From a virus: a stretch of 64,000 bases of DNA. Position 1 is the first letter of the stretch, and each line of letters starts with the position of its first letter. Shown one piece after another: positions 1,956-41,600 of the stretch. Below the pieces are notes generated by a model, which was given only the letters and a program-made list of their open reading frames with translations, searched no databases and was not told where the DNA came from. Both the position numbers and the translations under genes were made by a program. The DNA lies in the IMG/VR virus record IMGVR_UViG_3300042197_002147, positions 1 to 64,000 of that record; one strand, given 5' to 3'.

Positions 1956-2855
1956 ATGGGTTCATTTAGCGATTTTAAGAAAAAGTCAAAATCTAGCATC
2001 GACCAGTTGGTTCAAAAGATGCAACAAGACAATACCAAGAACGATTACAAGGATGACCGTTTTTGGCGTCCAAAGCTAGATAATGCAAAAAACGGTTTTG
2101 CAGTAATTCGTTTTCTTCCTGCAATTGAGGGAGAGGACATTCCGTGGGTTAAGTTGTATTCTCATGCTTTTCAAGGACCCGGTGGTTGGTATATTGAAAA
2201 TTGCCTAACCACTCTTGGTCAAAAGGATCCAGTTTCGGAGATGAATACTCAACTCTGGAATAGCGGTCTTGATAGCGATAAGGATCTTGCTCGTCAGCGT
2301 AAGAGGAAACTGAACTACATCTCAAACATTTATGTTGTCAGTGATCCGGCAGAACCCTCGAATGAGGGAAGGGTGTTCCTGTTTAAGTATGGTCAAAAGA
2401 TCTTTGAAAAGATTCAAGAGGCAATGCAACCGGAGTTCAAGGACGAGGATCCACTTGATCCATTTAACTTTTGGAACGGTGCAAACTTCAAACTGAAGAT
2501 TCGTTCCGTTGGTGGTTATGTTAACTATGACAAATCTGAGTTTGATTCCCCCTCTGCTCTGTTGGGTGGAGAGGATGATAAACTAGAAAAGATTTGGAAG
2601 TCTCAGCATGCCCTTAAGAGTTTTGTTGATCCTTCAAACTTCAAGTCTTATGACGAACTGAAGCAGAAGCTTTTTGATGTCCTCAAGGGAGACATTCGTG
2701 GTGGCGGATCTGCACCAACACGAACCGCAGAGGATGTTGATGCAGAGGATCTGAAGGAAAAGAAGCCTTCTATTCGGTCAAAGCCCCCAGTTGAGGAGCA
2801 AGTTGACGAAGAAACAGATGCTCTTGATTACTTCAAGAAGCTTGCTGAAGAATAA
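1956..2855 (+). CDS. gp32: Single-stranded DNA-binding protein gp32
   Basis: DDRFWRP..D...NGFAVIRFLPA, HAFQGPGGWYIENCLTT, FWNGANFKLKIR, acidic tail ending LDYFKKLAEE. Confidence 0.97.
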   Translation: MGSFSDFKKKSKSSIDQLVQKMQQDNTKNDYKDDRFWRPKLDNAKNGFAVIRFLPAIEGEDIPWVKLYSHAFQGPGGWYIENCLTTLGQKDPVSEMNTQLWNSGLDSDKDLARQRKRKLNYISNIYVVSDPAEPSNEGRVFLFKYGQKIFEKIQEAMQPEFKDEDPLDPFNFWNGANFKLKIRSVGGYVNYDKSEFDSPSALLGGEDDKLEKIWKSQHALKSFVDPSNFKSYDELKQKLFDVLKGDIRGGGSAPTRTAEDVDAEDLKEKKPSIRSKPPVEEQVDEETDALDYFKKLAEE

Positions 2856-2925: not shown

Positions 2926-4309
2926 ATACGGTTTTTGATCTCCAATTTGGTAAACTATTAATTTTATTCGTTAATTGTTTTATTCCAATTGTATTTGTTG
3001 TTTTTGAAATTTTTTGCAAAGATTGTTCGACTTCGGAAACAGAACTAACAACACTTCTTGAATTGTTTCTATCAAATTTTGGAATCTCATTTGACATATT
3101 TGCAAATAGTGTTTCTTGGTCTAAATTGTCTTTCATTTTACCATTTTCATTAATTGAATTTATTACAGGTAGCATTGCAATATCGCCAGTTTTTACAAAT
3201 TCTTCAACAGATGATGATATTTTTTCTTTATTAACACTTGATTGAATATCTTTATTATTTTGATTAAAAATTTCTTTTAATTTACTTTGTGGTATTATAA
3301 CCTCTGGTTCCTTTTCACCTATGAGAGATAATGTTGGCTTTTTAACTATTCCACCCTTTTCGAACGCAGGAATAGTGTTTTCTTTATTTCTTATTATATT
3401 GTTTTCAGATCTATTGATTAGCATTGTTCTTATGCTAATATTTTCTGTGTTTAAATTATTTTGATTTACATTTTTAATGTCATCAAGTTTATAGTAAATT
3501 GGTTCTTCAAAGAAAGTAAATTGCGATGAACTTATATTTTCTGTTAAATTTACATTTTTATTTTGTTTTACTTCTGTGTTACTATTTACATTTTGTTTTA
3601 CTTCTGTGTTACTATTTTTGTTGTTTTCGTAAAAATTGTTAATTTCTTCTTTAGGAGATAAAATTTCTGTTTTATTTGTGTTTGTATTGAATGTTATATC
3701 TGTTGTGTTAGTTAAAAAATTATAAGGTTTTTCATAAAAAGTATTATTTAATTTAGTGGTATTGTTTATATTATTTGCTAGTGTTGATGATGAGTTTTTA
3801 TAATTTTCTAGTATTTTGACATATTCTTTTAGATATTCATTTTTTGTATTTTTTACTACATTTTCTTTTGTTATGTTATTTTGAACAATATCTTCTAGAT
3901 GTGGTGACATTACTGTTGTATTTGTATTTCTAAAAATATCATAGTTTATAACAGTCAAAGGTTTTACAAATTCAACTTTGTTCAGTATATCTTCAGAAGT
4001 GTTTAAGTAATTTACTAGGGGTATATTATTTTTTTTTATGTCTAAATTATATGTTTTACCGTTTCCAAGAGATTTTATTGTTTTCTTATAATTTGTTGTT
4101 TTTTTATCATCCGGTAAGACTATGGAAATATTGATATCTTCTGATTTTGGTTGCTTTAGACTAGAAGAACTTTCTTTTTCTTCCGTATTGTTTACGCTGG
4201 GCAAGCTAATAGAATTTGTGTTTATATTAATATTGGAATCCAAAGAAAGACTACTACCAAATAATTTCATTATTTCCTTTTTAAGTTTTGGTAAGTTTTT
4301 TTCTTTCAT
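2924..4309 (-). CDS. Asn-rich tape-measure/baseplate-hub-like protein (gp29 position)
   Basis: 461 aa low-complexity ORF containing PAFEKGGIVKKPTLSLIGEKEPEVIIP, a motif typical of tape-measure C-terminal regions; follows gp26/gp51. Confidence 0.55.
   Translation of the reverse strand: MKEKNLPKLKKEIMKLFGSSLSLDSNININTNSISLPSVNNTEEKESSSSLKQPKSEDINISIVLPDDKKTTNYKKTIKSLGNGKTYNLDIKKNNIPLVNYLNTSEDILNKVEFVKPLTVINYDIFRNTNTTVMSPHLEDIVQNNITKENVVKNTKNEYLKEYVKILENYKNSSSTLANNINNTTKLNNTFYEKPYNFLTNTTDITFNTNTNKTEILSPKEEINNFYENNKNSNTEVKQNVNSNTEVKQNKNVNLTENISSSQFTFFEEPIYYKLDDIKNVNQNNLNTENISIRTMLINRSENNIIRNKENTIPAFEKGGIVKKPTLSLIGEKEPEVIIPQSKLKEIFNQNNKDIQSSVNKEKISSSVEEFVKTGDIAMLPVINSINENGKMKDNLDQETLFANMSNEIPKFDRNNSRSVVSSVSEVEQSLQKISKTTNTIGIKQLTNKINSLPNWRSKTV
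3560..3617. repeat. Tandem 28 bp direct repeat, period 30, encoding NSNTEVKQN twice
   Basis: attttgttttacttctgtgttactattt at 3560-3587 and 3590-3617. Confidence 0.9.
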
Positions 4310-4503
4310 CTCATATTCTTTCTACTATTAATTGCTCTTAGCATATTTTGTTTATTCAGGAGTTTTAGATTCTCGTCTTGTATGTGTTGCCTCAGTGATT
4401 CCACATATATGTCTCTTTCCCACGGTAGTAATGATTCGATTTCAGTTAAACTATAGTGGTATATTTGCATCATTTTGAAATTTAAATCAAAATATGTAGA
4501 CAA
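4306..4503 (-). CDS. gp51: Baseplate hub assembly chaperone gp51, possibly made as a frameshift fusion with gp26
   Basis: LNF.MMQ.YHYSLTEIE.LLPWERDIYV motif; TTG start with no RBS; frame stays open upstream into the end of gp26. Confidence 0.88.
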   Translation of the reverse strand: MSTYFDLNFKMMQIYHYSLTEIESLLPWERDIYVESLRQHIQDENLKLLNKQNMLRAINSRKNMR

Positions 4504-4520
4504 ACTATTGTGGCTGAGGC

Positions 4521-5225
4521 TTATCCGAAAAAATCTCTAATTCCCCTGAGTATTACCTTTCTTTCTACTTTATCACTTGTTGTATATTCGATCTCTTGTT
4601 CTATTCTTGGTATTGTTGCAAAGAAATTAATAATTTTGTCAAATTGTTCTTTTGTCATGTTGTCAACAAATTCTTTTATTTCTTCTTTATCCTTATCTTT
4701 GCAATCTATTCTTTCTTCTGGTGTTTCGATATAGTCAACACAATTTACAGCAAGATCATAAAAGTCCATTAAACTCATATCTGATGTTTCATTTTCTATA
4801 AACATATTCAATGAAGGATATTTCATTGATATGAAAAGTTTGTCATTTAGTTTTATTTTATTTTCGTGATTTTTAAATGTTTTTACTTTTATTTCTTCCA
4901 AATTAATTTTTAATTTGATTCTTTCTTGTGTCTCTGGACATATTAAATAAGGTTCTACTATTTCACCAACAGACTTGGATCTCAATTTTAAGAATAGATA
5001 TTCCAAATCAAAAATAGGCATTTCTCCTGCGTCTTCTATTTCGAAGCAAGACTCTATTAATTCCTTTATGGCCATTAATATTTCTTTTTCTTTTCCCGTT
5101 TCTTGAACCATCAAAAGTATTTTTTCATCTTTTACTAAAAACGGTCTAAACCAAATTTTCTTTTTTGTTGATGGAACTGTTTCTGAATATTTTGGTGTCT
5201 TTGATAATAAATCAATCAATTTCAT
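4521..5225 (-). CDS. gp26: Baseplate hub subunit/chaperone gp26
   Basis: PKY...PST.KKI.FRPFLVKDEKILL, FDLEYLFLKLRSKSVGE, MKYPSL, C-terminal G..DFF. Confidence 0.93.
   Translation of the reverse strand: MKLIDLLSKTPKYSETVPSTKKKIWFRPFLVKDEKILLMVQETGKEKEILMAIKELIESCFEIEDAGEMPIFDLEYLFLKLRSKSVGEIVEPYLICPETQERIKLKINLEEIKVKTFKNHENKIKLNDKLFISMKYPSLNMFIENETSDMSLMDFYDLAVNCVDYIETPEERIDCKDKDKEEIKEFVDNMTKEQFDKIINFFATIPRIEQEIEYTTSDKVERKVILRGIRDFFG
4527..4533 (-). other. Candidate -1 ribosomal slippery site T_TTT_TTC
   Basis: gp26 ends AGA GAT TTT TTC GGA TAA; the -1 frame continues CGG ATA AGC CTC AGC CAC AAT AGT TTG... into gp51. Confidence 0.6.
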
Positions 5226-5867: not shown

Positions 5868-6299
5868 TTAGAATAAGTCCTCTTCCGTCAAAATTTTGAA
5901 TACTATTCCGTTATCTTTACAATATTTATTTGCTGCTTCCCATTTTGCTAAATTTGTCACATATGTAATATTTTCCATCAAAATTGTCTTCTTTTGTTTT
6001 TTGTTTTTTTCTGGTTGTTTTGTTTGTTTTTTTGGTTTGATTTCTATCAGCATTGTCTCCACTAAACCATTCTGTGTTTTTGCTTCAATTAGAAAATCTG
6101 GTATATAAAAATGCATTTTGTTGTCTATTGGAGAAAGATAAGGTATTTTTACTGCTTCAAATGACCAACGAACTATATTTGTATTAGAATCTAAATATTT
6201 ACAAAACCTTCTTTCCCACAAGGAACGACATAAAATTGAATTAATATCACCTATATATTTTGTGGGGTTATTCGGTATATATTTAGTTTTATACGGCAT
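5868..6299 (-). CDS. gp4: Head completion nuclease gp4 (PD-(D/E)xK)
   Basis: MPYK.KY.P.NP.KY.GD, RSLWER.FC.YLD, YIPDF, IEIKP.KQT, N.AKWEAA, F.ILTE; start moved to ATG 6299 to avoid overlapping gp48. Confidence 0.93.
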   Translation of the reverse strand: MPYKTKYIPNNPTKYIGDINSILCRSLWERRFCKYLDSNTNIVRWSFEAVKIPYLSPIDNKMHFYIPDFLIEAKTQNGLVETMLIEIKPKKQTKQPEKNKKQKKTILMENITYVTNLAKWEAANKYCKDNGIVFKILTEEDLF

Positions 6300-6322
6300 A
6301 TGTAAATATATAGGGACAAAAA

Positions 6323-7201
6323 ATGGCAATAACAGAGAGTTTATTTTCCTCTAGCAAAAATCATATATTTCCTTCTAGTCAACAAGACAGAGCAAGCATA
6401 CCCCTCTGGTTGAAGTTTTTTTGCTATGAATACTCTGATAATTCTTTATATAGAGCGTTTGCCAATAGTGGCGCTGGTCTTATGCTTAAAAGCGTAATGC
6501 TACCCGCACCGAAGGAGTTCGTAACAAAAACAGACAATGTATATGATACTGGTTTGGTCAAGGATGATAAGTCCACACTGACAACGGCAGATCCCCAATC
6601 AGCAGATTCTTTGAGTGATTTTGCTTTTGCTGGAGGGGCCAGAGCAGTTGCTAGAGGTACAGAGTTTTTGAATTTTCCACAATGGATAGCAGAAACATTG
6701 GATGTTGGTGTCAAAATAGACATGGATATGTCTGATGCCAAATTTAGAGGTGTGAATAAAAGATTATATAATTTTAAAGTAATTCTTGCGGCAAGATCTG
6801 TACAGGATTCAAATCTGGCATCTACTATATGTGACGCATTTGAAGCATATTCTTTACCACAAGCAAGATTTGGTCTGTTTTCTAAGTTTGTTTCACATCC
6901 ACCTCTATGGAAATTTGGAATAGGACCGGCAGGAAATGAACAAATTGATCGCTCTTGGTCTGGTCAACCACAACTTTGTGTTCTAGATCAGATAACGGTA
7001 AGTAAAACTGGTTTTCAAGACAATTATGGTATATCGGATGAGAGTGGAAATATTAAACCAATATGTCAAACAATAAACATGACATTTGTTGAACTAGAAC
7101 CAGCGTTAAGAAAGTTTACTTTTGGTGGTTCTAGCGATATTATTAATCGTTCTTCTTCCTTTTATCAAGTTGGCGGTCTTGGTGCATCAGTAGTAAGGTA
7201 A
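6323..7201 (+). CDS. gp48: Baseplate tail-tube cap gp48
   Basis: FRGV..R.YNF...L.ARS..DS, HPP.W.F, CVL.QITV, INMTFVELEP; upstream of gp53. Confidence 0.8.
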   Translation: MAITESLFSSSKNHIFPSSQQDRASIPLWLKFFCYEYSDNSLYRAFANSGAGLMLKSVMLPAPKEFVTKTDNVYDTGLVKDDKSTLTTADPQSADSLSDFAFAGGARAVARGTEFLNFPQWIAETLDVGVKIDMDMSDAKFRGVNKRLYNFKVILAARSVQDSNLASTICDAFEAYSLPQARFGLFSKFVSHPPLWKFGIGPAGNEQIDRSWSGQPQLCVLDQITVSKTGFQDNYGISDESGNIKPICQTINMTFVELEPALRKFTFGGSSDIINRSSSFYQVGGLGASVVR

Positions 7202-7204
7202 AAT

Positions 7205-8269
7205 ATGGCATATTTTAACTTTTTCCCAACAATAGAATATACATTCAACAACGAAAAAACTTTAGAAATGGTTGATATTTTTAGAAAGGTGTCTTTTACA
7301 CAAAATACACTAAATAATGAATCTATTTTTGACAGTTATTATTTGTCAGACGGTGGATCACCAGAAAAAACATCATTTGATTTGTATGGTTCTAGTGAAT
7401 TTTCTTGGATGCTGTTTGCTTCTAACAGATTTGTAAATCCTCATAAAGAATGGGCAAGAGAATATACATCATTGATATCAGAATTGAATTCAAAATATAA
7501 TGGAAAAACAATATACATCAGCAGAATTCCAAATCTTTTACCCGGAGATGTAATTTTTAAAATAACAAGAGCTGGTTGTTCTGGAAATACATCGCAAGAA
7601 ATTTACACTGGATGTAATTTTAGTTTTGAAAATCCAATACAGACTTACAAAATAATAAAAGAGTGGAATCAAGAATTTCGTTATTTAATATGTGTTGGTG
7701 GTTCAAGTTCCTATGAATTTGCAGTAGGAGACACTTTTGCTGTTTTGAGAAAAAATAGTGCTGGAGAATATAAACCAGTTTTGTTTGGAGATGGTATTGC
7801 GGATACATCACCCGGTACAGATGGTTTTGTAGACATAACAATAAATTCTGAAACATTTTCTATTTTTAGAATAGCAAAAATAGAAGAAGAAAAAAATACA
7901 ATAGTAAAATTTTTGAAAAATAGCATTGTTGTTTCGCCATATAGAAAAGTAAGTACAATGGCTAGTTCTTCCTCTACATTAACTAATTACTACGCAAATA
8001 CCAGTTCAAACATAACAACATATCCGTCAGGAGTTCCATCAACAAGTGCAACAGATTTTGGTGGAACCGTATTAGACTCGTACATGAGGAATGTATTATC
8101 AACAGAAGTGACATATAAAACAAAAATGCAAATAGAAATAGAAAAAAATGAAAAAGCATATAGTATAAAGGCCCTAAAACCAAAATACTTAAGCTCAGTT
8201 ATAGGAATGTTTACAGAAACAATAAATACTAATCAAGGAAGAGTTCTATCTCTTGAACTCAATATATAA
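7205..8269 (+). CDS. gp53: Baseplate wedge subunit gp53 (enlarged)
   Basis: MAYF..FP.I.Y, DIFRKV, LysM-like PE..S.DLYG....W.L...N..VNP..EW, C-terminal E.E.NE....IK.LKP.Y. Confidence 0.88.
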   Translation: MAYFNFFPTIEYTFNNEKTLEMVDIFRKVSFTQNTLNNESIFDSYYLSDGGSPEKTSFDLYGSSEFSWMLFASNRFVNPHKEWAREYTSLISELNSKYNGKTIYISRIPNLLPGDVIFKITRAGCSGNTSQEIYTGCNFSFENPIQTYKIIKEWNQEFRYLICVGGSSSYEFAVGDTFAVLRKNSAGEYKPVLFGDGIADTSPGTDGFVDITINSETFSIFRIAKIEEEKNTIVKFLKNSIVVSPYRKVSTMASSSSTLTNYYANTSSNITTYPSGVPSTSATDFGGTVLDSYMRNVLSTEVTYKTKMQIEIEKNEKAYSIKALKPKYLSSVIGMFTETINTNQGRVLSLELNI

Positions 8270-11200
8270 TGCCTGAAAATTTTGAATCATTACAATCTAA
8301 TACTCCCACACCATCTTTCCTAGTAAATGTTAAAATTCAAAGAAAAGACGGAAAGGGTTCCTACGATATATTTAAAAACGACACAATGGGTCGTGGCAAC
8401 GACATTGTTGCCGAAATAAAAATATTACAAAATCTGTTTAATCCATTTATTTCTGGTTATATTGAACTGTATGACAAGGGAGACTGGACAGGTGAATTAA
8501 ATTTAACAACCTTTGAAGACATTATTTTTAAGTTTTCATTAGACGAGAACAAACTAGTAGATTTAAAGTGTAGAATTTATGAAGCAAAATTGGTCAATGA
8601 TATAACCTATGCACCAAGAATCAATAACATAGAAAAAGCAAATTTGTATAGATTGGAATTTATATCTGAGCCAATATTTAATTTTCAGTTTAAAGAAAAC
8701 TTTTTGAAGGATAAAGATTTCATTGGTTTGATTGCAAAAAAGGGTTCTGGACAAGGAAAATTAAAGGGTCTAATAAATGAAATATCTGAAAAATATGATT
8801 TAAAACCAATAGAAATAGAATCAACACAAAACGGTGTTTGGATCAAAAAGGATGAAATCTCTTTACCAACCGGCGTTGAGCAAGGTCAATTTGACATATT
8901 GCATTTGTTGAACTATATTAGTTCTTATGCCATAAGTAAAGACAATCAATATGCTCCTAATTTCTTTTTATGGCAAGACTTAGATGGTTGGCATTTTAAA
9001 TCAATAGAAAAAATACTAAAAGATCAAAAAAATAAATCTAGAAACAATTTAGAGTATTTTATTCTCAACACCGATGATGAAATCGACCCAAGAAAAGTTA
9101 GATCTTTAACTGTACTAAATCAGTACAATAGTATGAGTTTATTGAAAGATCGGACTTTAAAAAGTTATTACAAGAGAGTAGAACCAAATTTTCAAGATCC
9201 ATATTCTGACTTTTTAGATTCTAATAAAGGTTATACCTACAGCATAATAGATTACGATTACCATAGAGATTACAATAAAGTAAATAGAATTGAAAACAAT
9301 AAACTAGTACCAAAATCTATTAGCACTTCTCCTAAAGTAAATGGTCTTTATAATTCGGTAAATCGTGTTCAAGATGAAGTTCATTCATATTACACAAACG
9401 ACAAATATAATACACCTTTTCATCTTTTTTATGACAACAATGCTGACCGTGGTTTTGGTGATACACCAGATCATCATGCTATAGTATGGTGGGATTATTT
9501 AGGAAGAACTGCTGATTCTAGATGGTCAAATGTTGCATGGCAACCACAGTTTGATGTTTGTGATTTAGACATAGAAAAATTGCACACAATTGAAACAAAA
9601 ATAAGAGAGCCACTTAGAGAAAAAAGAAGAGAATTTGCGAGAAAGAAAAATATAAAAAGAGAATGGGAAGTATATAGATGTGCAGTTTGTTGTTTGTCAT
9701 CTGCAAATTTTGGTGGCACAGCAGATGTAAAAATGTTAGAATCTTTAGATCCTTCTGGAATAACCTATAATTTATTTTATGGTCCAACTGGATTGTTTTC
9801 CGATTTGCAGCAGGGATATAAAGTAGTTGCTGCTGGTTCTTTTACGGACACAATTAACTATGATCCTAGTATAGTGGGTAGTCAAAATGGATTGACTTTT
9901 TCATATGACTTTACAAAGGAACCATATAATCAAACTATAGGTCAGTTTTATAACATGAAGGAGGAAGTGCCAAACTTCATAAAATATTCATTAGAACAAA
10001 GTTTAGCACTTTATGATCAAACAATAGATTACTATAACAGAAGAATAGAAATAATGCAGTCTTTTATAAACAATGCTGATGGTTATATATCTTCTGCAAA
10101 TTCTTATATTGCTTCAAATACATTTCCAATACCAGAGGGCGCAGATCCATATAGTCCGGTTATTTATTATCCGCTTAGAGGTAACGAGGGTCCAAAATAT
10201 GTCACAACTTGGCATGGTCCACTAGTTGAACCAAATTTTTATCCATTTCCACCAAGTTGGTATAATGTTAATATGCCAGAAACGCCGATGCCTTATGTGC
10301 AAATACCAAAAGGTAAGTACTTAAGATATTACAATTATAGTGATGGATTGGAAACAAAATATGTAGAAGAAACAGGAAAAACAATACTAGTAAGTAAATC
10401 AACAAAACAAATTCCTGGATTCGTGAAACAATGTTCAAAAGAACAATACATGCCAGGATATTTAAGAGCTATTAGGAATTTTGACACCATACAACAATTC
10501 GCTGGAAGACTCTGGAATTCTAGTACTGGAGATGCTTCTGGAAATGAAATAGCATTTATTAATCCATATAGGTATAACATTTCTCTTCGTGGTTTACTGG
10601 AGGGTTTGTGGTATGAACCACAAACTTTAGATTTTTATTCTGTTCCAGATGGAATACGATCAAATTACGAAGAAGCATCAAGAAGTTTAAGAGAATGTGT
10701 CAATAATGGTGAGTGTTTTAATGAACTTTGTTTTGATCCTCTTTATGTGGAAATAACACAAAGAATAGCAGAAAAAGAAATACAAATAGTAAGATTTGAA
10801 AGAGATTTGTACATTTATCTGAGAGATATTGTAAGAAATACATTTATTCCAAAGTGGAAAGAGTTTTATAAAGAATGGTGGAATAGAAAAAGTTTCTTTG
10901 CTTCTAAGCAAATTGGAACTAGTATTTTTAAAGGAATTCCAGAAGGAAGAGGTAATACTTTAACACAACCTCTATCTTTGTATAATATCAAAAAAATTAC
11001 AAGGAAAGAAATAAAGGGAAGCAGATATGAAATACTAGCAAAGTCTAAATTGGGAGTTACCGGGGCATCTGCTGGTGTTTGGCTATATGACATATTTTTT
11101 GGAAATAATAATTCTTCAAATCCAAATGATTTTGTACCACAAAATGGAAAAACATGGTGGGAAGATAATAAAATTCACCCATATTATAGTCAAAGGTATG

Positions 11201-13350
11201 ATAGTAGATACGGAAAATCCGCATTTGTTACTAAAAGATCTTTGAACAATTGGTATGTTTATAAAGATGCAAATCCTATTAATAATGGACCATATAAGAC
11301 AGATAATGTATTGCCCCTAAGAGATGAAGAACTAACACAAACAGCATTTATAATTGGAACACCAAGTGAAGTAAGAGATCTTGATGTCACAATTGACAAT
11401 CTTGGTTATGCTTTATCACACTTAGAGTACATGGAACCAATTGATGAAGTTGATTTTATTAATGGTTTTAATTTATTCGATGAAAATATTTTTGATAAAA
11501 AACCACCAAATATTAAAAAGGAAGAAATAAGTTCTTATGTTAGAATTGAATTCCAGAGTCCAATTGGTTTAGATAGAATAGCGGATTTCCCAGATAGTTT
11601 TGTTCGTGATGCTGGTTCTGAATATTTCTTACCATATTTAGTTCAAGTAACTGCTGGTCCAAATGGAAGACAAACAATAAGAAATAATGTTGTTGTAATA
11701 GGCATGGATCCTTATGGTTTTGATGTTGCAATTAAAAAATCAAAGGTAGAAAATAGAAATGATGCAAGAAATTATTCTTGGTGGAAAAGTTATTCTCCAG
11801 TTAATATTGGAACAGATTTAAGTGATGCTGGCATGGATTTATGGCCAGAAAACGGTTTCAATGTAGAAGCCCCATATTACACAACTGATGTTTCTTCAAC
11901 AATTCCACAATTAAAAGATGGGTATGCTTTTGATTTTTATTATTGGGAAAGAACTGGTACAAATACTAAAAATCCAGGCCTAGCAGCAACCGATATTGAT
12001 CATGAATATAGACAGTCTGCGTTGGGTAGTGGTTATTTGCTTTCATCCCACAAGAAAACAAAACCACACAGATCTTGGTGGTCTTTCTATATTCCATCTA
12101 ATCTATATTTCAAACAAAAAATGCTGAGTCCCGCTCTTGGTGGAGCATATGGTGCAATCACTGATTATGGTTTTGGAAGCTATTGGTATGGTGTTGGAAG
12201 AGGAATGTGGACAGATTTTACTTCTTATAGAGGTCCTGTCTTGGATTATTCTGGCCACGCAAGTAAAAACCAATTTGGTTATTGGTGGTACGATGGTCAT
12301 ATGGGATCAAATGCAAGTTTGACTCAAATGAACAACAGAGGAGATGACCGTTGGATTGATTTAGCAAATTCTGCTGACACAATACAATTGCTGAATTCCT
12401 ACGATTTGAATTCAAAAATTATTAAACAAGATAATGTAAATAATCAATATGAATCAGTAAAGGTTCACACGGAAAACTCAATACAGGAACTGCATCCACA
12501 ACTTAGACAGTATTTTGAAAATGATGTTTTGCACTGGTTAAATTGTGATTATGCTCTATATCGTCCTGGCTTACTCGCAGAGGATCTTTGGAAATACGAT
12601 TTAAGTGGAGAAACAGATTATGGAATAATCACACCCCCAGTAGATGAGGCAAATTATGATGTATTTGATCAAAATTTTGCAGCACAATTTGTTGTCTTTG
12701 GAAGATCAACAAGTTTATGTGATAAGTTTACATGCGCCAATCCAAATGGAGTAACCGATTCATCTGGTTGTCCAGAGGACAATCCTTATTGCAATTGTCC
12801 GGCACAAGATAGAATGCCAGATGAACCAGAACCAACATATTTGGAACTTTATAGTCTCTATAATAGTATAAGGGAATGCGAATTAATTGAAAAGAATTTG
12901 GGAGAAGAATATCTTGGATGTATTTGGATTGATCCCAATAATCCATGCAGTTGCAATTGTCCAGAAGTTGGTGAAAAGTTCCACGAATATCTAAAATATT
13001 CAAGAACATACTCTACTTTCTGGTCAACCCCACCACATGTTCCTTTACATAGAATAGCTTATATGAATCAATTAAGTTCTCAGCAAATACAAATATCAGT
13101 TGCTCCCACAAAAAATGTAAAAATAGGAGATCTGATCTATTTGTATCACGAAAACCCAAAAACAAATCAAGGAAGTAGTAAACTTTTCAAGAATAAAGAT
13201 AAAAATTTGGCAGGAAAATGGTTAGTAACTGGAATAAATCATAGTTTCTTGAAGGAATCTTTACAAGTAACGGAACTTATACTTTCAAGAGATAGTTTAC
13301 CTGTTTCACCAGACTTTGGTTCAAGTCCAGAAACGGCATATCTGTTATAA
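8269..13350 (+). CDS. gp27-like baseplate hub with a very large internal insertion
   Basis: N-terminal I.QNLFNPFISG.I.L.D and PNFF.WQD.DGWHFKSIE; C-terminal I.V......KIGD.I...LAGKWLVTGINH.F....L.LSRDS; lies between gp53 and gp25; 1693 aa. Confidence 0.75.
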   Translation: MPENFESLQSNTPTPSFLVNVKIQRKDGKGSYDIFKNDTMGRGNDIVAEIKILQNLFNPFISGYIELYDKGDWTGELNLTTFEDIIFKFSLDENKLVDLKCRIYEAKLVNDITYAPRINNIEKANLYRLEFISEPIFNFQFKENFLKDKDFIGLIAKKGSGQGKLKGLINEISEKYDLKPIEIESTQNGVWIKKDEISLPTGVEQGQFDILHLLNYISSYAISKDNQYAPNFFLWQDLDGWHFKSIEKILKDQKNKSRNNLEYFILNTDDEIDPRKVRSLTVLNQYNSMSLLKDRTLKSYYKRVEPNFQDPYSDFLDSNKGYTYSIIDYDYHRDYNKVNRIENNKLVPKSISTSPKVNGLYNSVNRVQDEVHSYYTNDKYNTPFHLFYDNNADRGFGDTPDHHAIVWWDYLGRTADSRWSNVAWQPQFDVCDLDIEKLHTIETKIREPLREKRREFARKKNIKREWEVYRCAVCCLSSANFGGTADVKMLESLDPSGITYNLFYGPTGLFSDLQQGYKVVAAGSFTDTINYDPSIVGSQNGLTFSYDFTKEPYNQTIGQFYNMKEEVPNFIKYSLEQSLALYDQTIDYYNRRIEIMQSFINNADGYISSANSYIASNTFPIPEGADPYSPVIYYPLRGNEGPKYVTTWHGPLVEPNFYPFPPSWYNVNMPETPMPYVQIPKGKYLRYYNYSDGLETKYVEETGKTILVSKSTKQIPGFVKQCSKEQYMPGYLRAIRNFDTIQQFAGRLWNSSTGDASGNEIAFINPYRYNISLRGLLEGLWYEPQTLDFYSVPDGIRSNYEEASRSLRECVNNGECFNELCFDPLYVEITQRIAEKEIQIVRFERDLYIYLRDIVRNTFIPKWKEFYKEWWNRKSFFASKQIGTSIFKGIPEGRGNTLTQPLSLYNIKKITRKEIKGSRYEILAKSKLGVTGASAGVWLYDIFFGNNNSSNPNDFVPQNGKTWWEDNKIHPYYSQRYDSRYGKSAFVTKRSLNNWYVYKDANPINNGPYKTDNVLPLRDEELTQTAFIIGTPSEVRDLDVTIDNLGYALSHLEYMEPIDEVDFINGFNLFDENIFDKKPPNIKKEEISSYVRIEFQSPIGLDRIADFPDSFVRDAGSEYFLPYLVQVTAGPNGRQTIRNNVVVIGMDPYGFDVAIKKSKVENRNDARNYSWWKSYSPVNIGTDLSDAGMDLWPENGFNVEAPYYTTDVSSTIPQLKDGYAFDFYYWERTGTNTKNPGLAATDIDHEYRQSALGSGYLLSSHKKTKPHRSWWSFYIPSNLYFKQKMLSPALGGAYGAITDYGFGSYWYGVGRGMWTDFTSYRGPVLDYSGHASKNQFGYWWYDGHMGSNASLTQMNNRGDDRWIDLANSADTIQLLNSYDLNSKIIKQDNVNNQYESVKVHTENSIQELHPQLRQYFENDVLHWLNCDYALYRPGLLAEDLWKYDLSGETDYGIITPPVDEANYDVFDQNFAAQFVVFGRSTSLCDKFTCANPNGVTDSSGCPEDNPYCNCPAQDRMPDEPEPTYLELYSLYNSIRECELIEKNLGEEYLGCIWIDPNNPCSCNCPEVGEKFHEYLKYSRTYSTFWSTPPHVPLHRIAYMNQLSSQQIQISVAPTKNVKIGDLIYLYHENPKTNQGSSKLFKNKDKNLAGKWLVTGINHSFLKESLQVTELILSRDSLPVSPDFGSSPETAYLL

Positions 13351-32631: not shown

Positions 32632-35600
32632 ATGTATAGTAGTAGCATCAATACTTTAAAAATGATGGGTCCTGATGGCCCCACTGGTTCGGTGGGTCCA
32701 ACCGGATCTACCGGACCAACAGGACCCACTGGCGCAACTGGATCCACAGGAGCAGTTGGTCCTTACATCGTTTCCGTAGATGCAACAACAAGTAGAGCAA
32801 TATTTACACTCTCAAATGGTTTAACATTTGGTATTACAGGTTCTTTCTCCGGTAATACTGCATATTCTTCAACCGAACAAGCGACTAGCATTGGTTCTGG
32901 AACATCTATACTTGGAACAGCAACTCCAGGCCAACTTAATATAAAAGGTATAAGTGCAATTGGATCTTTGGTCGTAAGTACCACAAGTAATAATCTGTCA
33001 ATTGATACAATTTATAAAAGTGTTGTTGGAAATTTAGATGCTCTTGGTTTGTCTGCTGACACTTTAATGTATTTAAAAAGTCCAGAACTTGCAAGCAGCA
33101 CACGAATAAAATTAGACGGAACTGGTGATTTAGATTTTCAAAATCAATTTTACTTAAATGATGCCGCTTTTATAAAATATGTTGGCCCCATAAAAAAGAA
33201 TCAATATGTTGGCATAACAGGTGCAATTGAAAATATAACAAACGGAACAACTGGTGGAATTTATATTGATTTAGAAAATGGTGGGTTTTATCAATTAAAT
33301 ACACCAATCGGAATTGCTGGTTTTACTGGAACCTTTAACAAAAACGAAATTATTAGTGCAACACTAGTGTTTACTTCAGATGATATCTGGAAATTCCCAG
33401 AAAATGTCTATTTTGAATCTGGTGAAAATTATTTTACATGCGGTAAAAGTATAGTAAACATTTCTACTTTCGACGGTGGAGAAAATTGGTATGCTGTTGT
33501 TTCGCAGCGTGGTTTAGATATAGAATCATTTGCTTCTTGTAAACCATCAATAGGTAAAGGTTCCTGTTGTTATGTAAAATACCCGCAAAACACAGTAAAT
33601 TGCATAGATTATGTTTCTCGTGACGAATGTGATTTACTGGGTGGTTCTTTTAATCCACTTTTGTCTTGTTCACAGTCCTGTGGTTTGACTTTTGGTTTGT
33701 GTTGTTCCAATGGAAATTGCATAGAAAATGTTTCACCAGACGAATGTGCTTTTTTTGGTGGTGTTTTTTATTCTGCTTTAAGTTGTAATACTTATACAAA
33801 TAATCCAAATGGTAAAAATTATGATGAACCTATAGAAAATGGTAGACTTTGCTACAATCCATGCGAAACTGAAAAATTAGTTTGTTGCAAAAACGGAACA
33901 TGTTTGGGTAGTAATTACTCAAGAATACAATGTGAACTTATTCTTGGTGGAAAATCTGTAACTGGCGGAGATTGCTCTACTGTAAATTGCTGTGAAAACA
34001 ACATTGGTGTTGGTGCTTGTTGTGCTTGCAAGGCAAAAGGATTGTTGTGCTATGATAATCTAACACCACAAGAATGTTTAAGTGCAGAGTATGATGGTGT
34101 TTTCATGGGACAAAATGAATTGTGTGATAATGTAAATTGCACATGCGTTGGTGGTTCAAATGAACAGGTTGGTGAAACTTTTCCGACATTTGATTTGATT
34201 GTTGTACAAAATCCTGTAGCACCAAATCAAAGAGGTCATGTACGAATAGTTAATGTGGAAGATGCAGAAGGCGGACCATTTCAATATAAAGTAACTTTAA
34301 ATAGAATAATTGATCTTTTACCGGAAACAATTTATACTACTGAATATTTTGATATAACAAATCCTATAAACACAGATTATTTTACCGAACCATTGGAACA
34401 TCTCACTGACGAAGGAATTCCAACAATTTATGAAGTTGTTATATCGGTAAGAGATACTGATAATAATATATCAACAAAATCCAAATTTATTTCAGTAAAT
34501 GATGTAATTCCAGAAATTGTTTCAATATCTGTAGTACCAAGTTCTCCAATAATTTATGAAGAACCAGAAACATATCCAATAAATGTTGGATCCACAGTTT
34601 TAGTAACTGCAAGAGATCCTGATGGTGGATCAGTTTTCTATGAATTTAGCATAGAACCTTCAGAAAATGAAGTTTCTTTTATTGAAATGCAATCCAACAT
34701 GATTGCAGTTACTCTTGTGGTAAAGGAAACTACCAATAACAATACAACAGTAACCGTTAAATGTGTCGTAACAGACGAAGAATCTCAAAGCGTAACTGTT
34801 ATGGTTCCTATAGTTTTTCAAAAAGATGTAGCACCAGAATATGATATTGTTATAGATCCTCCCGGAGAGGGAACCGATTTACCAGATTGGGTATACAATG
34901 GTTGCTTAAATGCTTCAACTTATCCTGCTGCTGGAAGAATAGGAACAACATTAAGACCTCGTATTAAAATTCCAGCAAATCAAGGAAATATTAAATTATA
35001 TTATGGAATGGCTATGTACAGAGAAGAAGGACCTGGTCAGTACTATTGCTGCATGAATTGTCAGCAAATTGTAATGCCAAACGGGGAACAAGATATTATC
35101 TCTGGAATAAATGATATAACTATAGATTTACCTGAAGTAGCAGGAAATACAGCAGGACTTTATATTCTTAGCACCATACTACGGCAACAACCATACAATG
35201 AGTTCAATACAATATCTAGAGCAAAAGCAGTTAGAATAACAAATGAAGGTCCTCAAATAATTGAAATAACTCCTGATATTGTAATCAATATGGATCCTTC
35301 TGAACCGCAATTACAAGTTCCAACTGCTTTTATTCCAAATGGTATTTTCAAGGAAGTTCAATTTGGTGTAACTGCCGCCGATATAAACAATAATCTAGTT
35401 GGTGCATTGTTTTTTCCAAGGTTAATAGCCAATGGAAATGTATTAAGTTACAATTATACTTACACATCTGGATATGTTCGACCTGTCTCAAATGTAACAA
35501 AAATTGGCAATTATTTTACCCAAAGATGGAGATTTTTTTACGAGTCAAATTATCAAATAGATCATCAAGTTAACGATGAAGTTTTATATACTGATATTGA

Positions 35601-38600
35601 TTCTAGTAATTTGTCAATTATAAGAGTCAGTAACACTTCCCCTTCTATTTTTTCTATAACATCAAATATAGTAATACCACCAGAAACCGCATTTTCTGTA
35701 ACAGGAAGTGGTATAACAGATCCAGATCCTGCTGATGTATTACAATTTAAATGGGTTTTATCTAAATCGGATTCTTCTATTATAGAGGATACTGGTTGGC
35801 AAACACTATCTGGTTCTAGTGTGACATATACAAAATCTACTGGATTACCCGGAGCACAGACGAATCAAGTTTATTTTGTAGATCTTTTTGTAAAAGATCC
35901 AAACGAAAATGTAGCAACAAAAAGATGTACTGTAACCGTACAGAATAGTTTACCTATAATTGGTGTAACTTATGATACAGACATAAGTTCTCCTTTTGTT
36001 AAATTTATAAATGGAACTGATGCCAATCTTGGTCTTTTAGAAAAATTAATTTTAGACACCACAATTACTGCTTCTGATCCAGATGGTGGTTCTTTGACAT
36101 ACAATACAACAGTTTCTGGTGGTCCATTTTCGATAAATGGTCAAACTACTTCAAAACCAAAAATAGAACTATTGCAAAAGGGAAATTATTTAATATTCCA
36201 CACAGTAACTGATAATGAAGGTGGAACCGACTTCATTCAAAGTAATGTAGAAATTTTAGAAAATGAAAGACCTTCTATAAATTTTGATTCAACACAATCT
36301 TCTATTTTGTTTCCTTGCTCTGGTCAAAATTTAGTTGATGTAATTGCAACAGTTTCTGATACAGAAACGCCATTTTCTAATCTCACAAATGCTACAATTG
36401 TTCCGATTAGTTATCCATCAACACCACCAGAATTGATAGGTACTGTTCTAACAGACAATGGTTCAAGTGGTGACATAACAACTAGATTTAAAGTATTCAA
36501 CACAGGAACATATACATTTAAAGCATCTATAACCGAACCGGGAATAGATGACACTATTTCTCAAACAGTAGAAGCATCAACTACTATAACAGTATCTGCT
36601 GATCCTAACTTCAATCCTTCAATTCCACCCATATCCCCGATTACTGTTTCGAATCCAATTTCAAATTTCTTATTTACAATCAACGCTTTCGATGTCAACG
36701 GAATAAATCCATTATTATCCAATGTCAGACTTGAAACTGGTGCTGATCCGTATTTTAGAATTAATTCAACCACCACAACACAGCAGGGCGACAATACTAG
36801 TATACAATTTGTATTAGATATATCTGTTCTTTCCACCACTGTACCTAATGGTTTATATTCTCTTATTATAAAAATTATAGACAATTGTGGAAGATCTTTC
36901 GAACAAACATCTGGATTTGTTAATGTGCAAAATACAGCACCATCCGTAACCATAACAAACCCAACTCAGACCGTTGTTTCTTCAACACTTCCAGTAACAT
37001 TAAATTTGAGTGCAAGTGGTTATGATCCAGATGGTTCAACACTAATTTATAATTGGACATTGACTGGCCCAAGTACAACATACAATTTTTCAGCAAATAA
37101 TTCATCATCATCAAATAACACAATTTTAACTGGATTGAATAAAGGTGGCCAGCATCAAGTTTCTGTTACGGTAACAGATAGTTCTGGTTCTACATCTGTT
37201 CCGGCAGCAGTTACATTGAATGTGACGGATCCAAATCCTACAGCAAATGCAGGAAACGATTTATCAATAACATATCCAGATTTAACAACATTTCCTAAAA
37301 CTTTTTCATTAGATGGAACAGGAAGCACGGATCAATCTGGCGGTTCTATAAGTTTATATCAGTGGAGTATTATTTCCCAAAGCGGTTCTACAATTGAATT
37401 TGTTGGGTCAAATCAAATTTCTACACCAACGGTTAAGGTTAATGGTTTTGGAACATATACTTTATCTTTAGTAGTTACTGATAATAATTCAAATGTTTCC
37501 AGTCCAGATACTGTTACTTTAACTTTGTTAAGAGACATTGCACCAACAGTAAATTTGACCGCATCATCAACAAACATTACACTTCCAACAAATTCTATTA
37601 ATTTACAAATTAATACATCAACAGATGTAACTTCGGCAACAATAACAGAGGTGACTTCTTTTGGTGCTACAATAGTTTCACCCGTAAAACTAAATTCAAC
37701 AACTTGGCAAGCAACTATTAATAATTTGACAACAAATAGTAATGGTTCTTCTAGAAACTATACATTCAAGGCAACTGTAGATGATGGTGTAAATCCACCA
37801 GTTGATTCAAATCCACAAACAATAACAATAAACAATCAAATACCAACTGCCGAAATATTTATTCCATCTAGTACTTCTGGTGTTAATATGACAAGTAACT
37901 ACACATTTGGTATTACGGCATTTGCCGTTGACCCAGATGGTGGTTCTCTGGTAAATCCTGAATTTCTTATAACTACGGTTCCTCCAACATATACTGGAAG
38001 TGTTTTATTTGGTGCAATTTCCCAAAATGTAAGTACAAGCGGAACAACATATTCGGCACAATGCACGATAGCTGCACCAATAAAAATTGGAAATTATGGT
38101 TTTGCATTCATGATAACTGACAATGAAGGACAAACAGTTCAGTCTAATCCAAAAGAATTAATATTCACAAATCAAAGTCCTACAATAACAGCATCAAAAC
38201 TGGCACACATTATACCATTTCCAACAGTTACACAGTTCAATACATCTGTATATGGAATTTCGGTCACGGATCAAGATAATAATATAACATCAAGTAGATG
38301 GAGAATGAAAAGTGTTCCTTCTGGTGCAAATTCTGGATACTCCAATCCCTTATCATCGACTTCTTCATATTCTGATATTTTAATTCCATTTATTGATTCG
38401 CCGGCTCCGGTGGGTGGTACATATACTCTTGAATTACAAATTCAAGATTTGGGAGGAAGTGTAGTTAGTCAAGATTTTACTGTTAAAAGAAATCAAGCCC
38501 CAAATGTTAGTATTACAAATCCAGATCCAAACAATTCTGTAAATATAACATTACCTTCTACTCTTAATTTAACCGCAGTTGCAAATGATCCTGATGGATT

Positions 38601-41600
38601 TATTTCTAGTTATATCTGGACCGCATCTGATCCAAGCAGAGTAACTTTTAGTAATGCCTCTTCTTTAAACACAACAGCAACATTTACTCCAATTGGTTCT
38701 ACATATTCGATTTCAATTGGATTTTCAGCAACAGACAATAATGGAAGACCTACATCAGCAAGTCCAAGTTTAACAGTAAATGTTTCCCCAAATCCAGCAC
38801 CAGTAATAACATCATTTTCTGCTTCTCCAACTAATCCACTTATTTCCGGTGCTAATCAAAGTGCATCCACCACACTTACAGTAAATGCAACAGATAACGA
38901 AGGAATTACATACTTCTTTAAACAAGTACCAGAAGCAGGAACACCAACAGTAAGTATAACACAAAATCCATTACAAAATCAAGCAGTTGTTTCTGGTATG
39001 ACACTTCCATTTTCGAATAGCACAATAGCTTCTTCTAAAGTTTATAAATTTCAAGCAGAAGTCACTGACGCCTCTGGAAACAAAATAACTAGTAACACAT
39101 TAAATGTTACAGCAGAAAGCAGTCAACCAACAATATCTAATGTAAATAGTAATTTGGGTTCGATTACATTTACAGGGTCATCACAATCAATAAACATAAA
39201 TCCTACACCTGGCGCAACAGCAATAGATCCAGATGGTGGAATTTTAAATTATTTATGGACAAACCCAACTAAACCCGCCGGAGCAGGAATCGTCACAATA
39301 AATAATAGCAATACATTCACACCAACTGCAACAAACTTTACTCAGCCAGGATCTTATGGTTTTAATTTACTTGTAACAGATAACGAGGGAACACAAAATA
39401 ATCAAACAGTATCCTTAACTTTAACTAATGCAGCGGCTCCAACATTTGGTACTCTTCCTGTGAGCGGCGTAGTACAAAACCCTGTTTTAAGTGTTTCAAG
39501 AACTTGCACAATTTCAAATGCAAGTGCAACTCCATCTTCAACAAATGCCGGACCCGTTAATGTAACAGCAGGGGTTACGCAAATTTCAGGTCAAACTGCA
39601 CCAACAGTATCAGTAAGTAATGGAACGAATATACAGTCTAGTGCTACTGTCTCTATAAACATTAATACAGCAACGATGACTCCCGGTATTGATTTTACTA
39701 TTTCAGTAACGGCAACTTCTACAACAAATGCATCGCTTTCAGCAACAACAGCATTTACTATAAGAAAAAATGCATTACCTATTTTACCACCACTCTCTGG
39801 AAGCGGTGGTAATGTAAATACTAAATTAAATTTTACAATATCTGGTGTTGGATTTGCATCTGATCCCGATGTAGGTGGATCAATTACAAGATATGATTGG
39901 ACAACAAATCCTCCGACCAGTTCAATTTTTCCAAATAATAATGCTGGTGCGACATTTGTTGGTATAACATTTAATGCAACAGGAACATATACCGTTTCTT
40001 GCCGAGCTGTTGACATTTTGAGTGAAGGTACTACTGCTAATTTAACTGGTATTGCTATAGCTGCACCACCAGCAGATCCTTGTACATTAAAGAATTATGC
40101 ACGAAGTAGTGGATATTTGTATAATATTATCGTGCCAAATGAAGCAATACGAGGCGCATCAAAAGGACCAGGAGCTCCTCCAGCTCCACCCAATACATGT
40201 CCGCCGCCCCCTTCTAGTCCTATTCAAAGTTTGTTTAATTCGGGAAGTGCATTTGCTTCGAACTGGGATTATTTGGGCGCTTTTAGTGCTGGTGAGTTAG
40301 GATGGAAAATAAATCCAGCAAAACCAACGGGCGATGATAATACAGGAACAAAATATCCTTATTCTAATTTTATTTTAAGAAATGGAAATTATTTTGATCA
40401 TTCTGCTACTGCTTTTAGTTTGGATTATTTTGACAGTTGGAAATCAGCATCAACTGCACTGATTCCAGTTGCTGCCATTAGAAGAGTTACTAGACCATTT
40501 GATTTGTCTTTTGCATATTTAAGCGGTATTTATCCAAATTTACAAAATAGAACTCAATATGAAAATAGATTTATACAATTTATAAATTCAAATGAATTCG
40601 ATTTCACATCAAATGCAGAACAAGACAAAACTGTAAGACTTGGTGATGGAATTCCATTTATTTTCAAATGCTCCTGTTGGGACGCAAATGAGGAATTGTC
40701 CTATACAAATTGGTATGATTATACTTCACAAACTGGTTCACAAGAATTTAATTTAACATGTCCATCAGGAACTACAAGAAAACCAAGATCTTTGATTGTT
40801 GTTAGATTTAAACAAGCAACAGCGATGTCAGCAGTAACAAATGGTCCTTCAGGAAATGCAACAAAATGTCATAATTTTACTAATGTTGGTGGCGGCGAAG
40901 GCGCACAAGTAGTCACAACTGATATAACTGCATATTATGTTTCAAGAAATGAAGCACAATCGGCTACAACGGACACATGTAAAATAGGTGTAGGTAAATA
41001 TGCACTTATAAGATATGAAATAAATTACCCAAAAGACTCAACAGGTGATGGTTCGTTAACAAAAACAATTTGTAGCGATTCATCGACAAATGTGGGTACA
41101 TGCTCTGGTGCTAGTAATTTGTTTATTCCGGTTAGCACTCTTTCTTTCACAACTTATCAAAGTGATCCAGATATTGCAAATCAGCTTGGAAATTTTCCAA
41201 AAGTAGTTAATATTCCAGAAATTTGCACTCCGTGTACGACATCAGGTCCAGCGCAAACAGATGCGAATAGAACAGCTAAAAGAAAATACTCAGATATAAC
41301 TTGGACAACTTCTAGCATGGCATGGGCAACAACTTCAGCTCCTTTAAGTGTAACATCAAATCGTGCGTTTGTTCCACCCGAATTTATATGTGTTGCGGAT
41401 TGTGAAAATTCATCGTATTTATCTGGAGGAACATGTATAACTACCATGACCGGTCCTTGTGCAGCAGCTGCATTTACTGGAGAAGAAACACCAATAAATG
41501 ATTCAAATGGTAATGAAAATCTCATTTGGATTAAAATATATAGTAGTGAGGATCCAACACTATATGAATGTGTTCCTGTTCTATATGATTTAGAAATTTT

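Follow-up and report, generated by a model that had tools for sequence, protein, structure and literature searches.

The genome of an uncultured marine T4-like phage poses the question of how a short gp51-like open reading frame (ORF), lodged in the -1 frame between a gp26-like gene and a tape-measure-like gene, is expressed. The locus lies on the minus strand of the first 64,000 nucleotides (positions 1 to 64,000; hereafter the window) of IMG/VR virus record IMGVR_UViG_3300042197_002147, a 156.7-kb record with T4-like genes and an estimated completeness of 70%; the window is AT-rich (G+C about 30–34%). An initial annotation, made from the letters alone, proposed that gp26 and gp51 act as a frameshifted pair of tail assembly chaperones. 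On the comparisons described below, we consider it highly likely that a fused long form is made at a slippery heptamer through some kind of recoding, and probable that this recoding is a -1 slip of the ribosome. Judging from sequence, the gp26-like gene is probably the tail (hub) assembly chaperone gene of a T4-like phage and very probably has two products, of 234 and 306 residues. The idea of recoding at such a locus has been in print since 2022, and the window adds a further example of a phenomenon already published. Vladimirov, Gautam and Davidson (2022, Virology 566:9-15), as represented in papers that cite them, identified gp26 and gp51 as tail assembly chaperones of T4-like phages, and PRFect, summarising that study, relates that in some T4-like phages a short gene is accompanied by a longer fusion gene. 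A 2025 paper (PMC12846349) adopts the terms TAC-N and TAC-NC of Vladimirov et al. and treats poly-T as a known -1 signal in T4-like TAC-N genes. In the accessible literature, which for Vladimirov et al. consists of citing papers only, we found no description of a 5' stimulator or of the direction of evolution.

The 3' end of the gp26-like ORF reads GAT TTT TTC GGA TAA and, as first pointed out from the bare sequence, contains T_TTT_TTC in the X_XXY_YYZ phase of the gene. Read in the -1 frame, the same bases give AAT TAG AGA TTT TTT CGG, with TAG closing that frame one codon ahead of the T run. A slip at the heptamer would join 233 residues to a further 73, giving the 306-residue fusion originally proposed, and the TGA that ends the extension overlaps the ATG of the tape-measure-like gene (ATGA). 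Within the extension of the window the only start-like codons are a TTG at codon 11 and ATGs at codons 21 and 22, none of them with a purine-rich Shine-Dalgarno motif in front, in agreement with the earlier reading. The TTG encodes a leucine that is invariant among homologues, and the peptide ISLSHNSLSTYFDLNFK lies upstream of every start codon. The 156.7-kb record contains a single copy of PF12322, the family of the gp26-like protein, and a single match to the extension.

The alignment of gp26/gp51 junctions across T4-like phages that the initial annotation had called for was made with 92 loci, comprising the window, 85 IMG/VR contigs and six isolate phages: P-SSM2, HTVC008M and Bellamy (Kyanoviridae), ValKK3 (Schizotequatrovirus), Astolliot (Otagovirus) and phiN3 (Emdodecavirus). 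All 92 show T_TTT_TTN in phase together with an identical -1 relation. The heptamer is TTTTTTC in 86 loci, TTTTTTT in four and TTTTTTA in two, and the codon ahead of the run is always NNT (AGT 46, TCT 26, GAT 14, GCT 5, AAT 1); the residue encoded there varies (S, D, A, N) while its third base, T, is invariant, serine being drawn from both the AGT and the TCT families. The first phenylalanine of the slip site is encoded by TTT at every locus, whereas another conserved Phe-Phe pair of gp26 is mostly written TTC TTT. Unlike the heptamer sites, neighbouring codons are synonymously saturated. Under gene-body codon usage, the joint probability of these codon choices is about 1e-18 (53 clusters at <80% nucleotide identity, independence assumed). 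Such synonymous constraint goes beyond what the protein sequence demands and therefore points to a signal at the nucleotide level. The T run is exactly six long in 88 loci and seven or eight in the other four, and its 5' side is never extended. The frame-0 stop follows one codon after the heptamer in 86 of the 92 loci, and the -1 ORF spans 59–76 codons.

Two relatives (L013 and L014, about position 2187) use T_TTT_TTA, and in four other loci (L002, L012, L044 and L053) T_TTT_TTT alters the first post-slip residue, the stop following directly in L002, L044 and L053. In an IMG/VR relative (L029, 1934-1965) the frame-0 stop TAA/TAG is replaced by TCA and gp26 extends eight codons beyond the heptamer. 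Since the heptamer and the -1 ORF of L029 are intact, the position of the stop does not appear to be essential.

Conservation of the extension itself argues that it is read as protein from the slip site onwards. A tblastn search with the extension matched 478 phage records at E <=1e-3 and 501 at E 1e-2, and most matches begin at query residue 1, so that they overlap the annotated end of gp26. In the alignment of the extension 7 columns are invariant and 10 nearly so; the SHNSL stretch, which the initial annotation likened to the N-termini of gp51 homologues, is a genuine motif, with H8 nearly invariant and L11 invariant. Across extension codons 3–20 the entropies at codon positions 1, 2 and 3 are 0.94, 0.69 and 1.37 in the -1 frame (90 loci), and much the same periodicity (1.01, 0.82 and 1.33) is retained at the 23 loci, window included, where the first ATG stands at codon 12 or later. 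The final 18 codons of gp26 show coding periodicity in frame 0. With frame 0 before the heptamer and -1 after it, the selected reading frame switches exactly at the heptamer. A search of longer proteins for close relatives in which the extension is fused in frame found none, which is weak evidence.

By sequence comparison, T4 gp51 is the in-frame equivalent of the predicted long form, in that it consists of a gp26-like domain followed by a C-terminal domain homologous to the extension. T4 gp26 (208 aa) and gp51 (249 aa) are paralogues (BLASTP E 2e-6), and both are PF12322 proteins, as is the short form of the window. The gp26-like protein of the window aligns with residues 16-172 of T4 gp51 (BLASTP E 5e-5) and the extension with residues 204-237 (E 0.003), the homology covering about 50 C-terminal residues of gp51, and the domains of the predicted fusion are arranged as in gp51. 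In the multiple alignment, gp51 runs in frame beyond the x-Phe-Phe position into the extension-homologous domain. Profile matches divide the proteins in the same way. PF12322 covers residues 11-233 of the gp26-like protein and residues 1-201 of T4 gp51; phrog_634, 'baseplate hub assembly catalyst', matches residues 147-246 of gp51 (E 1.2e-23) and the 72 post-slip residues of the window extension (E 2.1e-19), the latter match beginning at post-slip residue 2. The gp26-like protein also matches phrog_150, 'baseplate hub' (E 6.9e-60, positions 11-232 of 282), a profile that gp51 covers from position 13 to 280 and on which T4 gp26, without the C-terminal part found in gp51, ends at position 235.

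The two lineages differ in how they encode the two forms. T4 has two divergently transcribed paralogous genes, whereas the window phage has one gene and a slip site; PF12322 genes accordingly number two in T4 and one each in P-SSM2, HTVC008M, ValKK3, phiN3 and the window genome. T4 gene 26 ends GAG TTC TTT GAG TTA CTA TAA, which is non-slippery, and the in-frame gp51 type is present in about 1200 Straboviridae records.

T4 gp26 and gp51 have been listed as hub assembly chaperones (Leiman et al. 2010, PMC3004832), and structure prediction is suggestive in this respect. The AlphaFold2 model of the gp26-like protein has a pLDDT of 89.5, and that of the extension consists of three helices at a pLDDT of 84.8. 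When residues 1-96 of the gp26 model were searched against 48,161 representative chains, the top three matches were 3fgx_B (Z 7.4), the HK97 tail assembly chaperone 2ob9_B (Z 6.8, 81 residues aligned at an rmsd of 3.7) and YqbN 3klu_A (Z 6.5), all values that the tool places in its 'common' range; ORF12 of phage p2 stood lower (Z 3.0). A Foldseek search of the gp26 model against the PDB returned nothing at E <=1e-3. In BFVD the fold recurs widely across large myoviruses. The modelled N-domain thus bears a suggestive resemblance, at moderate Z, to solved tail assembly chaperones. As a separate observation, the gp26 alignment profile gave weak matches among PDB sequences to poxvirus A41/OPG170 chemokine-binding proteins (E 0.002-0.004 over about 160 residues), which are probably due to chance.

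How might the long form be made? We propose that the majority of ribosomes would read GAT TTT TTC GGA and terminate at TAA, yielding the 234-residue short form, while a minority, with UUU in the P site and UUC in the A site, would slip back one base, both tRNA-Phe re-pairing with UUU UUU. Reading would then continue as CGG AUA AGC... and the protein would gain a three-helix domain of 73 residues, the resulting 306-residue long form being the counterpart of T4 gp51. Upstream, a Shine-Dalgarno-like motif (GGAGG, GAGGG, AGGG or similar) stands 8–10 nt from the heptamer in 84 of the 92 loci, and the glutamate codon at the motif is GAG in 63 of 77 loci, compared with 31% GAG elsewhere in these genes. 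In the window this element is AGGGGA, and its pairing with the anti-Shine-Dalgarno sequence of 16S rRNA may promote the slip, as in Escherichia coli dnaX (tau/gamma), where a Shine-Dalgarno-like element likewise lies about 10 nt upstream of a heptamer. The dnaX case differs in also requiring a strong downstream hairpin, of which there is none in the window, and its shift truncates the protein, whereas that of the window would extend it. The exact phase of the heptamer, the constant length of its T run and the upstream motif together fit a ribosomal -1 slip. A fuller scheme adds that the slip is aided by the 5' element in a dnaX-like manner without 3' structure, that it is the ancestral route to the long form in the T4 superfamily, and that T4 genes 26 and 51 arose through a later duplication that hard-wired the frameshift product; we put this forward tentatively, as a combination that falls a little short of an even chance.

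Several observations weigh against ribosomal slippage of this kind. The Shine-Dalgarno-like motif overlaps a conserved Leu-Glu-Gly motif of the protein. RNAalifold returned no consensus downstream structure for the 90 ungapped junctions (value 0.0), and downstream of the heptamer the window folds no better than shuffled sequences (z-score -0.64). A 5-bp hairpin placed 10 nt downstream is found in only 32 of the 90 loci and is not in the window. An ATG at extension codon 6 or 9, present in 67 of the 92 loci, would make separate initiation possible there. The hairpin itself is palindromic (e.g. GGTCC ATAT GGACC), occupies nucleotides 11-24 after the heptamer and is confined to one subclade; it shows G-C to A-T changes on both sides and overlaps the codons of an x-His-Met-Asp motif.

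The same 306-residue fusion would result if RNA polymerase added one U on the T6 run in some transcripts, a mechanism that we hold to be unlikely, though the likeliest of the alternatives. The signal is, after all, a homopolymer run, which the invariant NNT codon lengthens, and conserved downstream RNA stimulators were not found in the alignments above. Because the protein product is identical, comparative data cannot tell the ribosomal from the transcriptional route; of the initial proposal, the chaperone pair is supported by the conserved signal and gene order, by the gp51 homology and, suggestively, by the moderate-Z matches of chaperone type, and it is the choice of a ribosomal slip that sequence leaves inseparable from its transcriptional equivalent. 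Nevertheless, efficient slippage by bacterial RNA polymerase needs, so far as is known, a homopolymer of about 9 or more nucleotides, and a run of six is short for it, though a low-level product is conceivable. The near-constant run length, the lack of 5' extension and the strict X_XXY_YYZ phase also argue against a transcriptional slip, and transcription would have no use for a Shine-Dalgarno-like motif spaced much as in dnaX. In addition, the 'other mechanism' mentioned for Vladimirov et al. (2022) is, as the PRFect summary suggests, the two-gene solution.

We regard it as quite improbable that the small ORF is translated separately, by re-initiation or from an internal start, as a free gp51-like peptide, with the heptamer a by-product of a conserved x-Phe-Phe C-terminus. 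Public records do annotate the small ORF as a gene of its own, and an ATG stands near the gp26 stop, at codon 6 in 50 of the 92 loci and at codon 9 in 17. However, the window, with its first ATG at codon 21 and a codon-11 TTG that encodes a conserved leucine, offers no such start, and residues 3–20 are conserved with -1-frame periodicity even where no start precedes them. Nor does the protein sequence explain the synonymous constraints on NNT and TTT, and in T4 gp51 the extension domain is fused in frame. It is hardly credible that the -1 ORF has neither recoding nor function and is merely decaying or overlaps gp26 by chance: its retention, with protein-level conservation, in the 478 phage records found at E <=1e-3 contradicts such a reading, as do the invariant and nearly invariant columns of its alignment, and a confident fold is predicted for it.

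The locus can be compared with better-known chaperone systems. As with gpG/gpGT of phage lambda, the locus lies between the tube gene and the tape-measure gene, and a short form and a C-terminally extended form would share an N-terminus, the short-form stop being preceded at a distance of a few codons by an X_XXY_YYZ heptamer. In contrast, sequence similarity to the lambda proteins is undetectable, the gp26-like protein of the window is about twice as long, with an extra beta-rich domain, its heptamer is U_UUU_UUC rather than the G_GGA_AAG of lambda, and the role of T4 gp26/gp51 has been described as baseplate-hub assembly. By analogy with lambda, both forms may coat the tape-measure-like protein encoded next, with the extra domain of the long form recruiting a tube or hub partner. 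A conserved -1 frameshift in the genes that encode tail assembly chaperones in long-tailed phages was reportedly described by Xu, Hendrix and Duda in 2004, and Christie and colleagues are said to have reported the E/E+E' tail chaperone frameshift of phage P2 in 2002. P2, like the T4-like phages, has a contractile tail and makes its long form by a -1 shift on a six-T run, but its chaperone is much smaller and unrelated in protein sequence.

If this reading is right, T4's long-puzzling gp26/gp51 would be tied to the universal tail-chaperone frameshift. The 'gp51' of cyanophages, pelagiphages, KVP40-like, phiM12-like and Otagovirus phages is entered in databases as a stand-alone gene (about 55 aa), separate from gp26 as the initial annotation had said of T4-like phages, and is omitted from many records. 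The predicted real product is a gp26-gp51 fusion, which would call for a correction of annotation in hundreds of marine phage genomes. The particular value of the window locus is that it is a clean, start-codon-free example, and that its candidate 5' stimulator bears on the distinction between ribosomal and transcriptional mechanisms.

Table 1. Features of the chaperone locus and its neighbours, in the direction of the genes (positions in the window).
Feature	Position	Strand	Basis or remark
gp4-like head completion nuclease	5868..6329	-	Start of the gene order; PF08722 and phrog_218 matches
Tube-family protein (gp54-like), 207 aa	5243..5866	-	phrog_45 'tail tube', E 6.4e-18
Short chaperone form (gp26-like, TAC-N; predicted), 234 aa	4521..5225	-	PF12322 T4_baseplate, E 1.8e-58; TAA stop 4523..4521
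Shine-Dalgarno-like AGGGGA, purine-rich	4542..4547	-	8 nt upstream of heptamer; possible 5' stimulator
Slippery heptamer T_TTT_TTC	4527..4533	-	X_XXY_YYZ phase with gp26; direct sequence reading
-1 frame extension ('gp51'-like C-domain of predicted long form)	4306..4533	-	75 codons including the two slip-site Phe; TGA 4308..4306
Tape-measure-like gene, 461 aa	2924..4309	-	Weak tape-measure PHROG matches, E ~1e-3

The gene order in Table 1, from the gp4-like nuclease gene through the tube-family gene, the gp26-like gene and the short -1 ORF to the tape-measure-like gene, includes the tube-like, gp26, gp51, tape-measure-like layout recognised at the outset, and this layout (tube-like gene, gp26, extension, tape-measure-like gene) is kept across distant phages of the T4 superfamily. 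Tube-gene counterparts at the syntenic position in HTVC008M and ValKK3 carry the annotation tail tube or baseplate-tail tube initiator. In HTVC008M, ValKK3, Bellamy and phiN3, the gene syntenic with the 461-aa ORF gives tape-measure PHROG matches of E 1e-5 to 1e-12. By BLASTP, the 461-aa protein shows similarity neither to T4 gp29 nor to the tape measure of HTVC008M, and there is none between ValKK3 ORF318 and T4 gp29.

The tape-measure-like protein is rich in Asn, Thr and Lys, and in its gene about 30 nt are directly duplicated in tandem (3560-3625, minus strand), encoding NSNTEVKQN twice; the duplication could alter the length of the ruler. A scan of the region for promoters and terminators gave site counts no higher than in shuffled sequence. 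Between the convergent gp32 gene (1956-2855, plus strand) and the tape-measure-like gene, a hairpin rich in G+C, with a T run after it (GACAACCCCC GAAA GGGGGTTGTT, 2896-2919), is likely to be a bidirectional terminator. At the other end of the locus, the gp4-like protein has matches both to the N-terminal domain of TnsA-like endonucleases (PF08722, E 5e-21) and to phrog_218, 'head closure'. Further along the window, the structural region contains very large plus-strand ORFs at 8269-13350 (1693 aa) and 32632-41628 (2998 aa).

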